From: a virus
Taxonomy: Duplodnaviria > Heunggongvirae > Uroviricota > Caudoviricetes
Strand: one strand, 5' to 3'
DNA: 55,937 bases
IMG/VR virus record: IMGVR_UViG_2872192773_000004
Part shown: piece after piece, positions 24,001 through 27,000 of the stretch
How the letters are laid out: every line of letters starts with the position of its first letter
How positions within the stretch are numbered: position 1 is the stretch's first letter
Made by a program: the position numbers

Positions 24001-27000
24001 AGATGCTATCCGTAAAGATATGGTACCCGCGCTTCGGGAACTGATGCAGGCGAAGCATCGCGCACAGAAAGCAGTAGATGAGCTGGTGGACTGTGTGGCA
24101 GAGCTGGAAACCAGAGTCGGAAAGTTTGAAAAACTGGTGCAGGAGGCGCTGCGCTGATGCGCCATGAGTTTGTTTTGCCCTGGCTTGTGCGCGATCATTA
24201 TGTCCCTGGTGGAAAGCCCGGGATAAAAATCACCGAACCGGAGAGTATTTGATGAGCGTCAAAATTCAAACGATACCGGAACTGCTTATCCAGACACGAG
24301 GTAATATGACCGAAGTTTCACGAATGCTGAACTGTAATCGCGCCACGGTAAGAAAATATGCTGAAGATAAAGAGGGCAAAGGGCACGCCATTGTTGATGG
24401 TGTTCTGATTGTTCATCGTGGATGGGACAGGGGTAAAGACAGTGATGCGTGATATTCAGCAGGTTCTTGAGCGCTGGGGCGCGTGGGTGGCTAATAATCA
24501 TGAGGATGTGACCTGGTCGTCCATTGCTGCCGGTTTTAAGGGATTAATCCCTTCAAAAGTAAAATCCCGCCCGCAATGCTGTGACGATGACGCGATGGTT
24601 ATATGTGGGTGTATGGCCCGCCTTAACCGGAACAACAACGATCTACATGACTTGCTGGTTGACTACTACGTGTTTGGGATGACATTCATGACGCTGGCGC
24701 GGAAGCATGGATGCTCAGATGGTTATATAGGAAAGAAGCTACAAAAAGCCGAGGGGGTGGTGGAAGGAATGTTGATGATGTTGGGTGTCCGGTTAGAAAT
24801 GGACAAATATATTGAACATCCCTGATGGTAAGGGGCGACTTTCTAGAAAATATTTTACGTACGTAAAAAACGGGATATTCTGTTAAGAGTGGTTGCTTCG
24901 CCACACAGCTTAAACCCGCCTCCGGGCGGGTTTTTTATGCCTGAAAAACGGTACAGGACGTTAAACACGCTGGTGGTCAGATGAGTTTGCAGATGTGATG
25001 ACATATGGTTATTATTCTGCCTCCGGCCCTTTAGCTCAGTTGGTCAGAGCGAGCGACTCATAATCGCCAGGTCGCTGGTTCAAGTCCAGCAAGGGCCACC
25101 AACCACCACTAGCTCATCCGGATAGAGCATCAACCTTCTAAGTTGACGGTGCGAGGTTCGAGTCCTCGGTGGTGGGCCAGCGCCGACTTAGCTCAGCAGG
25201 CAGAGCAACTGACTTGTAATCAGTAGGTCACCAGTTCGATTCCGGTAGTCGGCACCATATGCGGGCATCGTATAATGGCTATTACCTCAGCCTTCCAAGC
25301 TGATGATGCGGGTTCGATTCCCGCTGCCCGCTCCAGTCAGAGTCTTTCAGTCTGCGATGATGGGAAATCCCGGAGTGACTGAAAGACGTTTAAGTTATGA
25401 ATGATCGCCTTTTTTTGCAAAATTGCTGTGCAGAAATACTAACCTTCGGGCGTGCGATCATTCATAAGCACTCTGCTTTTATTCCGATTAACTGTGGGTG
25501 GTTTGTTGGATAGAGTGCTTTCCTTACTGTATATATCGTTTCGCCCGCTTTTGCGTTTTTTTCTTTTCAAATCCCTTTCATTTCTCAGTGTAAAACTACG
25601 CCATCCGTTATTTGCGGAGGTGAGGCTATGAAATCCATGGACAAAATTTCAACGGGCATTGCCTACGGCACCTCCGCCGGCAGTGCCGGCTACTGGTTTT
25701 TGCAGTGGTTGGATCAGGTCAGGCCATCACAGTGGGCTGCGATTGGTGTGCTGGGAAGTCTGCTTCTGGGGCTTCTGACTTATCTGACGAATCTGTATTT
25801 CAAAATAAGAGAAGACAAGCGTAAGGCTGCACGGGGAGAGTAAATAATGAAGCATGAAGAAATGAATCAGCGATTCAATCACCTGGAAAATGAAATCACT
25901 GAGCTTAATAAAAAATTGTCGGCGTTGGTGAGTTCTGAAGATGAAAACAAACGCCGCGATGAGCATTATGCGGCGATTTACGATTACTGCCACAAAGTCG
26001 CTCACGAGACTTTTATGAAGTTTTTGCAGGAAAAGTTTTTACCGGCCGCATTGTCAGAAAAAGAGGCGGCTTACCTGCGGCCTGAGTACGTCATTACGGT
26101 TAACGGTGCCGGAGAGGAAGAGCATAAAAGTGATTTTATTGCGTCTGCACCGGATAAAGACCAGGAACCCCATCGGCCTTTCAGGGTTTCCTGTGAAGAG
26201 GGTGAGTTCGTCGTTTATGAGAACGGAAAACCTGTCCGGGCATCGCATCATCACTGCCTGAAAATTATTAATCTCGCTATCAGATGCCTGAAAGACGAAA
26301 ACACCAGAGTTATGAAACGCATTGGCCGTTGCATGGGGTATTTGCAGGTGGCGGCAGAGATTGAAGCACTTGCCAGTGGTGCAGACATGGATGCTGCGGT
26401 GCGGGAGGCTCTTCTTCGTGATTTCAATACTCCCCCTTTAAGAAAGAGCCTGATGACTGGATCCAGCCGGGGCTGACTTATCTTAAAAGGCGTATATAAG
26501 TTGGCTCGTTATTTGTTGCCGATAAATCCTGATAAATATCCATGAGCGCAAAAATCAAATACGGCCTGTCGGCTGCTGTTCTGGCGCTGATTGCCGCAGG
26601 CGCGTCTGCTCCCCAGATACTTGACCAGTTTCTGAACGAAAAAGAGGGTAATCACACAACGGCATACCGTGATGGTTCTGGCATATGGACCATCTGTCGT
26701 GGTGCCACAATGGTGGATGGTAAGCCTGTCATACCGGGAATGAAGCTGTCGAAGGAAAAATGTGACCAGGTTAACGCTATTGAACGTGATAAGGCGCTGG
26801 CATGGGTGGAGCGCAATATTAAAGTACCTCTGACCGAACCCCAGAAAGCGGGTATAGCGTCATTTTGCCCCTATAACATTGGCCCCGGTAAGTGTTTCCC
26901 GTCGACGTTTTATAAGCGGCTGAATGCCGGTGATCGTAAGGGCGCATGCGAGGCGATTCGCTGGTGGATAAAAGATGTTGGGCGCGATTGCCGCATACGT

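Follow-up and report, generated by a model that had tools for sequence, protein, structure and literature searches.

Are tRNA genes that lie behind the late terminator of a lambdoid prophage transcribed only when the antiterminator Q carries RNA polymerase into them, or are they also served by a promoter of their own? The question is raised by a stretch of 55,937 nucleotides of caudoviricete DNA (IMG/VR record IMGVR_UViG_2872192773_000004; the whole stretch is referred to below as the window), in which a Q gene is followed by an intrinsic terminator, four tRNA genes (25025-25335), 292 bp of further DNA and an S21-type holin gene, in that order. A sequence-only reading of this locus had proposed that the tRNAs would be expressed only upon Q-dependent readthrough. 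The comparative analysis described here favours a different answer: the locus is very probably the late-operon leader of a Q21-family lambdoid prophage, similar to those of Shiga toxin (Stx) phages, which carries a self-contained tRNA cassette.

According to this reading, the late promoter PR' (start near 24888) would fire constitutively and its RNA would stop approximately 49 nt later, at 24912-24936; Q, loaded at PR', would allow polymerase to continue past this point and to transcribe the tRNAs along with the genes for lysis and morphogenesis. Between the leader terminator and the holin gene would lie a moron-like unit, composed of its own promoter, the four tRNAs, a structured trailer and the remnant of a terminator. 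The tRNAs would thus have two sources, basal transcription that starts at their own promoter and needs no Q, and strong late transcription antiterminated by Q, and would add to the minor host isoacceptors for AUA, AGA(/AGG), ACA(/ACG) and GGA(/GGG).

The late leader and the predicted promoters ahead of the tRNA genes

ARAGORN found exactly four tRNA genes in the window, all on the plus strand and all within 25025-25335. The first has the anticodon CAU (cat in the ARAGORN call) and is read here as the AUA decoder tRNA-Ile2 (25025-25101; Rfam score, 70.5 bits); it is followed by tRNA-Arg(UCU), a decoder of AGA (and AGG) with an argN-like backbone (25103-25179; 56.4 bits), tRNA-Thr(UGU), for ACA and ACG (25182-25257; 69.8 bits), and tRNA-Gly(UCC), for GGA and GGG (25261-25335; 64.9 bits). 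The gathering score of the Rfam family, RF00005, is 29, and the four matches have E values of 1e-9 to 2e-13. The genes are separated by only 1, 2 and 3 nt; their cloverleaves are intact and the CCA end is encoded in all four. The two programs thus agree with the four tightly spaced genes proposed in the sequence-only reading, and every anticodon that had been read there by hand proved correct.

The gene upstream (24445-24825, plus strand) encodes a protein of 126 amino acids, which is covered over its full profile by PF06530, phage antitermination protein Q (E 4.2e-54; profile positions 1-118 of 118), matches the Q21 structures 6P18 and 6JNX (phmmer, E 3.9e-8) and is 85-87% identical to the Q proteins of Stx1 and Stx2 phages. 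At the same coordinates, PGAP annotates an 'antiterminator Q family protein' in E. coli CFSAN029787.

Directly downstream of Q lies a late promoter (24853-24888, plus strand), with a -35 element TTTACG (24854-24859), a 16-nt spacer and a -10 element TATTCT (24876-24881). It matches the consensus at only 8 of 12 positions; the 88 bp from Q to the terminator align with the Sakai prophage Sp5 and with phiON-2011. In Sakai, the PR' start has been mapped by differential RNA sequencing (Sy et al., PMC7547250). An offset of +142 carries the published Sakai coordinates over to the present RefSeq record; two landmarks confirm it, as it places the GU/AUU RNase E site precisely at +173 and the last base of the T-run, which is the 3' end of tR', at +258. 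This puts the Sakai start at the A of 'taagAgtgg', whose counterpart in the window, A24888, is the start predicted there, after the gttaag downstream of the -10 (TTTACG-16-TATCAT-gataag-A in Sp5, TTTACG-16-TATTCT-gttaag-A in the window). The late promoter is a homologue of Sakai PR' and is predicted to be active. A perfect 16-bp palindrome, TTTTACGTACGTAAAA (24853-24868, plus strand), overlaps its -35, and a 14-bp palindrome, TTTACGATCGTAAA, covers the -35 in the same place in Sp5 (positions 911-924 of our locus L126); the palindrome is a candidate Q-binding element (QBE). The direct-repeat QBE of phage 21 (ATTGAGCA/AATGAGCA) was not found at the PR' of the window.

The leader terminator, the equivalent of tR', begins about 86 nt past the Q stop codon (24912-24936, plus strand; AAACCCGCC-UCCG-GGCGGGUUU plus a U-run). 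Its hairpin consists of a 9-bp stem with six G-C pairs, a UCCG loop and a U6 tail, and folds at -18.1 kcal/mol (z -3.8 relative to shuffled sequences); it escaped a simple terminator scan, since part of the T-run is taken up by the stem. The earlier proposal of a strong rho-independent terminator behind Q therefore holds, and the alignment of the PR' region with Sp5 bears out its description as tR'-like. In position it is equivalent to the phage 21 terminator at +2..+49, and the PR' RNA of the window would, as in phage 21, be about 49 nt long and end at this hairpin.

The homologous hairpin of Sakai Sp5 occupies +25..+50 of PR' (L126, 970-996), although the terminator named tR' in Sakai is a second one, at +258. 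A 258-nt PR' transcript, StxS-L, is made in Sakai without induction (PMC7547250); since it accumulates, the first hairpin must be leaky there and be read through without induction of Q. By alignment, the window has neither the second terminator at +258 nor the 210-nt segment that bears StxS. StxS itself, the 74-nt 3' part of the PR'-tR' transcript, gave only chance matches of 11-12 nt elsewhere in the window by blastn-short.

A second promoter-like site, of the sigma-70 stable-RNA type, lies between this terminator and the tRNAs (24987-25015, plus strand; TTGCAG at 24987-24992, 17 nt, TATTAT at 25010-25015). Its -10 ends 9 nt ahead of position +1 of the first tRNA, and a -10 placed 9-10 nt before the mature 5' end resembles the layout of the host gene ileX. 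A consensus promoter scan, which reports the site as TTTGCA-18-TATTAT, returned 2 sites against 1.9 expected in shuffled sequences; the site is thus not significant alone, and comparative data were relied upon. Prophage loci were gathered by an exact 26-mer inside the tRNA-Ile2 gene, to which other loci fetched later were added, and the 207 prophage tRNA-Ile2 genes were reduced to 89 distinct upstream sequences. TAT[TC]AT was kept in 87 of the 89, ending 9 nt before the tRNA in 82, and the TTG that opens the -35 hexamer was present at 17-nt spacing in 84. Information content reached 1.90 bits per position in the -10 and 1.43 in the -35, against 0.97 in the spacer and 0.34 in the upstream flank. 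When three prophages with different Q genes (encoding 126, 250 and 229 amino acids) were aligned, the hexamers were invariant while the spacer and upstream DNA diverged; in one family of loci, the -35 directly follows a terminator. A primary transcription start has been reported for the homologous tRNAs of the Stx2a phage in Sakai (PMC7547250), and the same promoter sequence precedes ileZ in that strain.

The possibility that TTGCAG-17-TATTAT is PR' itself was rejected, as it accompanies the tRNAs in loci with three different Q families (proteins of 126, 229 and 250 amino acids) and a separate PR' homologue stands beside Q.

Were there no promoter at this site, the tRNAs would be silent in the lysogen and transcribed only upon Q readthrough from PR'. 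Such an arrangement suits genes placed, as these are, beyond PR' and its terminator and in the same orientation, and it suits phage 21, in which the first tRNA begins 1 nt past the terminator, so that no promoter fits between them; nor is the promoter-like site distinguishable by consensus alone. It leaves without explanation, however, why TTGNNN-17-TATTAT should keep a constant distance of 9 nt to the tRNA in 87 of the 89 distinct sequences amid diverging flanks, and why it should travel with the tRNAs behind three unrelated Q types. The primary start seen in Sakai for homologous tRNAs and the uninduced readthrough of the homologous first hairpin there (the 258-nt StxS-L) also run counter to it. 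We consider exclusive dependence on Q unlikely, and in this respect the sequence-only reading is not upheld, given the conserved promoter at 24987-25015 and the start reported for the homologous tRNAs; for phage 21, where there is no room for such a promoter, Q-dependence of the tRNAs may hold. The tRNAs of the window most likely have their own promoter, whose activity in this prophage is predicted from its conservation, and we conclude that the cassette would be transcribed independently of Q as well as by Q-antiterminated late transcription.

Identity of the tRNAs and the codons they serve

The CAU tRNA is identical to ileX of E. coli K-12 at 69 of 77 positions (90%) and to ileZ of Stx phages at 74 of 77 (96%), carries the ileX-like pairs C4-G69 and C5-G68, and is labelled tRNA-Ile by PGAP. 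Its identity to ileX and ileZ marks it as tRNA-Ile2, the AUA reader, rather than tRNA-Met, and its C34 would presumably be modified to lysidine by TilS, with IleRS as the predicted charging enzyme. The other members range from host-identical to divergent: tRNA-Gly equals K-12 glyT at 75 of 75 positions, tRNA-Thr equals thrU at 74 of 76 (97%), with both differences in the D-loop, and tRNA-Arg(UCU) shares 79% identity with argN, 75% with argU (19 differences over 77 positions) and 60% with argO of Stx phages. The backbone of tRNA-Arg(UCU) is thus argN-like and neither that of argU nor that of argO. All of its stems are paired, its D-loop reads A14-U-C-C-G18-G19-A20-U-A21, and it has U33, A20, C35, U36 and, as in argU, the discriminator G73. 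The E. coli arginyl-tRNA synthetase recognizes A20, C35 and U36/G36 as identity elements, which this tRNA carries; it would be expected to accept arginine, and the aminoacylation identities of the other cassette members are likewise predicted. The gene is present in 21 identical copies among the loci examined.

The second position of the cluster is occupied by a variable gene. A comparison of 102 such genes revealed one backbone family (CCGCCA...) with three main variants: Arg-UCG (argN), Arg-UCU (as in the window) and a Lys-UUU form with C33 and an A:C mismatch in the T-stem. As the outgroup argN has U33 and C35, the Arg form is probably near ancestral and the Lys/C33 form derived, and for the same reason an origin of Arg-UCU from Lys-UUU by an anticodon switch was rejected. 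A single slot that changes its anticodon on one backbone (Arg-UCG, Arg-UCU, Lys-UUU) offers a compact natural case of tRNA identity change.

The Lys-UUU form, with C33 in place of the near-universal U33, was seen at 3095-3171 of locus L001, at 3115-3191 of L003 and in approximately 60 other loci. In other genera the same backbone bears anticodon loops of 6 nt or otherwise odd loops, which ARAGORN calls '???', Phe-AAA or 'Stop-TTA'.

A slot that varies by lineage in this manner (Arg-UCU; Lys-UUU with C33; odd loops in other genera) might be expected if the cassette replaced host tRNAs cut by anticodon nucleases of the PrrC/RloC, PARIS or colicin D/E5 type, and tRNA-Lys and tRNA-Arg are known nuclease targets. 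However, the tRNA-Gly and tRNA-Thr of the cassette are 100% and 97% identical to those of the host, and the anticodon loop of tRNA-Arg(UCU), CUUCUAA, is that of argU; a nuclease that recognizes the anticodon loop would therefore cut the phage tRNAs as well. In addition, the codons cognate to all four tRNAs are enriched in the prophage. A counter-defence role is consequently very unlikely.

The codon comparison, which the sequence-only reading had proposed as a check, was made between 40 annotated K-12 genes (15,080 codons), 24 late open reading frames (ORFs; 7,583 codons) and 7 early ORFs (1,484 codons), and all four cognate codons were enriched in the prophage. Per 1000 codons, AUA rose from 2.8 in the host genes to 6.3 in the late and 7.4 in the early ORFs, AGA from 1.1 to 4.4 and 8.1, ACA from 5.5 to 12.7 and 17.5, and GGA from 6.9 to 12.4 and 18.9; the four codons are 2-7 times commoner in the prophage than in host genes (within-family Fisher tests, p 4e-7 to 3e-3), and the wobble partners AGG, ACG and GGG are enriched too. 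Enrichment in the early genes was at least as strong as in the late genes, which fits a supply of tRNAs independent of Q. An ACA codon bias has also been noted for phage SfI (PMC3636060). The bias fits codon supplementation, though imperfectly.

The trailer RNA and the decayed terminator before the holin gene

The 292 bp between tRNA-Gly and the holin gene (25336-25627) are non-coding, and no ORF of 60 or more amino acids was found anywhere in 24826-25627. In the sequence-only reading this interval was some 290 bp of non-coding DNA; its length and non-coding nature stand, yet the interval is not empty, for it contains a structured RNA that is conserved and the remains of a terminator. The minimum free energy (MFE) fold of the 292 nt reaches -89.1 kcal/mol (z -4.07 relative to shuffled sequences) and contains three long hairpins. 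Related E. coli phages keep the spacer at about 98% identity, while their DNA upstream of the tRNA promoter is unrelated.

The first hairpin of the MFE fold, H1 (25342-25387, plus strand), has an 11-bp outer stem around an inner GGGAAAUCCC hairpin and shows two compensatory pair changes relative to phage HK639. It is missing from the Yokenella and Citrobacter versions, in which H2 lies directly 3' of the tRNA, and is probably a decayed partial copy of tRNA-Gly, comprising its anticodon and T arms, as judged from an alignment read by eye. The second and third hairpins, H2 (25396-25466) and H3 (25467-25519), form an unannotated two-hairpin RNA (25387-25525, plus strand) that is supported by covariation. 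The HK639 copy, which stands behind a tRNA-Asn and a broken tRNA-Gly, is 75% identical and has compensatory changes in all three stems. Further copies of H2-H3 were retrieved by exact-motif scans with two fixed motifs, which found them in E. coli, Shigella, Enterobacter, Citrobacter, Yokenella and Phytobacter genomes and in more than 120 viral contigs. The motifs were the two best-conserved blocks, whose invariance among the 32 distinct homologues then compared is therefore by construction; the same two blocks were already the best conserved in the unbiased BLAST match to HK639.

For these 32 homologues, RNAalifold predicted 42 pairs, 8 of them with double compensatory changes. Standard pairs occupied 97.6% of the cells, against 37-51% when the partners were slid, and 64 cells with double changes were observed, against 22.6 +/- 3.2 in shuffles (0/500). 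Approximately 12% of the paired cells were G-U, which would be A-C on the other strand, and the RNA is therefore read from the plus strand. A covariance model scored the window copy (25387-25525), the single copy in the window, at 144 bits; it found none in phage 21 and none in 58 Stx-type or two-tRNA loci. No Rfam 15 family reached its gathering score for 25336-25627, and at E <= 10 only negligible matches of 12-13 bits were returned. Among 5426 complete E. coli genomes, 529 (approximately 10%) contain the two-hairpin RNA, and nothing was annotated under it among the E. coli matches listed. tRNAs lie directly upstream of H2-H3 in 99 of 105 loci, the last of them nearly always Gly(UCC), and a strong hairpin always starts within about 6-10 nt of the tRNA 3' end.

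An ORF of 59 amino acids at 25452-25631 was rejected as protein-coding, since the homologues carry 1-nt indels and compensatory pair changes. Kinship of the trailer with StxS, with the lambda leader RNAs or with an Rfam family was likewise rejected, for it resembles none of them: the H2-H3 RNA has no sequence similarity to StxS and no BLAST match in lambda records. Pairing between the trailer and the translation start of the holin gene was no better than in shuffles (10.7% of which were as good), and searches of papers for the conserved trailer motifs as strings returned irrelevant matches only, with nothing on this region for HK639.

The late leader of HK639 spans about 950 bp (locus L127, 1837-2700) and comprises tRNA-Asn, the broken tRNA-Gly, H1-H3 and four annotated terminators, after which the lysis genes begin.

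The two-hairpin RNA could, tentatively, represent a functional RNA family that has yet to be described and that accompanies the tRNA cassettes of prophages, and it may be the only element of this locus that is new. It is backed by covariation, absent from Rfam and unannotated in hundreds of genomes, and it stands at a place where other phages have evolved regulatory RNAs (6S, LPR2, StxS). Like StxS (PMC7547250) and the lambda 6S/LPR2 RNAs (bioRxiv 10.1101/2024.10.31.621285), H2-H3 lies in a late leader.

Two roles can be proposed. By analogy with a 3' external transcribed spacer (ETS), it may be set free from the tRNA transcript and act in trans as a small RNA; the 3'ETS-leuZ of E. coli is a regulatory RNA derived from a tRNA spacer, and H2-H3 similarly stands directly 3' of a tRNA. 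A terminator follows H2-H3 in most relatives, so that it could be released there as a stable RNA. Alternatively, once the tRNAs have been excised, the trailer may form a structured 5' end that shields the late mRNA, which would be the lysis and morphogenesis part of the Q-antiterminated late transcript, from 5'-end-dependent decay; the constant placement of a strong hairpin within some 6-10 nt of the tRNA end fits such a protective 5' end.

Between H3 and the holin gene lies the remnant of a cassette terminator (25544-25562, plus strand; CCCGC-UUUU-GCGuu followed by a U-run). Relatives carry CCCGCUUUUGCGGG plus a U-run at this position (CCCGC-TTTT-GCGGG; -9.5 kcal/mol), which a GG>TT change weakens to -3.3 kcal/mol in the window, leaving it with almost no structure. 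Of 100 loci, 73 have a hairpin of -8 kcal/mol or stronger with a T-run after H3. All nine Arg(tct)-Thr-Gly loci in which the downstream DNA is still homologous have the weak form; in two more loci of this lineage, different DNA follows.

Related loci and the state of the prophage

The locus is an ordinary member of a well-known arrangement that is already annotated in public genomes. Eight complete E. coli chromosomes match a 1.5-kb region of the window at 99.5% identity or higher, and in near-identical chromosomes PGAP lists a Q family protein, tRNA-Ile, tRNA-Arg, tRNA-Thr, tRNA-Gly and a 'class II holin'. Phage 21 and the Stx phages had already made the placement of tRNAs between Q and the lysis genes familiar, and the cluster as such adds nothing to this picture; tRNAs downstream of Q have also been reported for SfI, Sf6, ST64T, PS3 and p21 (PMC3636060).

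In phage 21 (OL657228.1) the order is Q21, pR', a terminator at +2..+49, tRNA-Asn, tRNA-Thr, S21, R21 and Rz. The window shares with it a PF06530 Q, a promoter after Q, a leader of about 50 nt to the terminator, tRNAs, an S21-type pinholin, a lysozyme and Rz. Phage 21 has only two tRNAs (Asn and Thr), however, the first starting 1 nt after the terminator with no promoter between, and its QBE, a direct repeat, is located between the -35 and the -10. In the window a palindrome overlaps the -35, the tRNAs number four and are different ones, the gap of 88 nt holds a predicted promoter, and there is a structured trailer, of which phage 21 has none.

The Stx phages (933W, Sakai Sp5, phiON-2011) run Q, PR', StxS/tR', ileZ-argN-argO and stxAB. 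The Q proteins, 85-87% identical, and the presence of ileZ-argN-argO and stx confirm that, as the sequence-only reading had it, the tRNAs of the window occupy the slot in which Stx phages carry tRNAs and toxin genes. Common to both are the homologous PR' and first hairpin, TTGCAG-17-TATTAT before a 96%-identical tRNA-Ile2, and the argN backbone in the second position. The window differs in having no stxAB, StxS, +258 terminator or argO, in its cluster of Ile2-Arg(UCU)-Thr-Gly as opposed to Ile2-Arg(UCG)-Arg(UCU), and in its H2-H3 trailer, which is absent from the 58 Stx-type and two-tRNA loci searched. The sequence-only reading had noted that no Shiga-toxin-like ORF is present, and tblastn of the whole window with Stx2A and Stx2B returned nothing better than E 0.64, so that no stx is encoded.

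Many other E. coli prophages and isolated phages, among them PhiR47_1, vB_EcoS-689R5 and the APEC O1 prophage, carry Ile2-Lys(UUU)-Thr-Gly clusters and are about 95% identical from the promoter through the holin gene. These share the order, spacing, trailer and holin of the window, but their second tRNA is Lys-UUU with C33 and the T-stem A:C mismatch, in contrast to the canonical Arg-UCU with G73, and they keep the pre-holin terminator and sit behind other Q types.

Morons, in the concept of Hendrix and colleagues, are units of promoter, gene and terminator inserted in lambdoid late regions. The cassette resembles them in its upstream terminator, its own predicted sigma-70 promoter, its cargo, the downstream terminator of its relatives and its movement as a module among phages whose neighbouring genes differ; it differs in that the cargo consists of RNA genes and not of a protein gene, and in that the downstream terminator is degenerate in the window.

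Besides the chance-level promoter count and the compact layout of phage 21, which has no room for a promoter of this type, several further observations weigh against a self-contained cassette that supplements codons. The downstream terminator, which a clean autonomous unit would need, is decayed in the window, and the published tRNA start site belongs to a different (Stx2a) phage. The late and early codon sets are ORF-based approximations and the host set comprises only 40 K-12 genes; moreover, the most enriched Arg codon in the late ORFs (25628-52935) is CGG (from 3.8 to 17.9 per 1000), for which the cassette supplies no tRNA-Arg(CCG) among its four tRNAs. Finally, the prophage is riddled with insertion sequence (IS) elements and probably defective, so that late expression may never happen in this strain.

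IS3-family transposase ORFs number at least 8 in the window, at least five of them outside the interval from Rz to the large terminase gene. The three inside that interval fall within 27965-31327 (27965-28756 and 29023-29691 on the minus strand, 30509-31327 on the plus strand), with an ALIL frameshift pseudoknot among the copies (29835-29951); these IS3 copies replace the ParDE, KilA-N and small terminase genes of E. coli CFSAN029787. Seen in this setting, the tRNAs could be inert relics, neither selected nor needed, and the codon bias a mark of foreign origin, a view with which the decay of the pre-holin terminator and the degenerate second-position tRNAs of relatives agree. Against such decay stand the four intact cloverleaves, with encoded CCA and high model scores, the conserved promoter hexamers, an Arg-UCU gene that is identical in 21 loci, and the conservation of the whole 1.5 kb at 99.5% identity or more across 8 complete E. 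coli genomes; we judge it quite unlikely that the tRNAs are relics. As the prophage is probably defective, a Q-independent promoter would be the only plausible route to tRNA expression in this strain.

tRNAs made from a repressed or defective prophage would alter the host supply of the minor tRNAs for AUA, AGA, ACA and GGA, and this could affect horizontally acquired genes rich in rare codons, such as the ipaH-type gene on the same element. This gene (53115-54878, minus strand) encodes an IpaH-type effector with NEL E3 ligase and LRR_TTSS domains and contains, per 1000 codons, 13.6 AGA, 8.5 AUA and 13.6 ACA; it points to a Shigella-type host, and the window is Shigella-like.

The lysis genes begin with the S21-type class II holin, or pinholin (25628-25843, plus strand), which matches PF04971, the P21 holin S family (E 5.5e-35), as well as PHROG holin families, and is about 85% identical to phage 21 S at the nucleotide level. 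The remainder of the lysis cassette (25847-27539, plus strand) consists of ORF209 (25847-26476), a lysozyme gene (26542-27075) and Rz (27057-27539), with matches to PF00959 and PF03245 covering the latter two. The 209-residue product of ORF209 matches phrog_1085, a function-unknown family, and has no Pfam match; the gene lies between holin and endolysin, where relatives have ydfR.

Other RNA elements of the window, at 13933-14108 and 19695-19883 (plus strand), are Rfam matches to the sok antitoxin RNA (117 bits) and to isrK (58 bits), the latter followed by a C4 antisense RNA (75 bits) beside ORFs of the Ash and Rha families; the isrK/C4 region looks like an antirepressor control region similar to the immI of P1.

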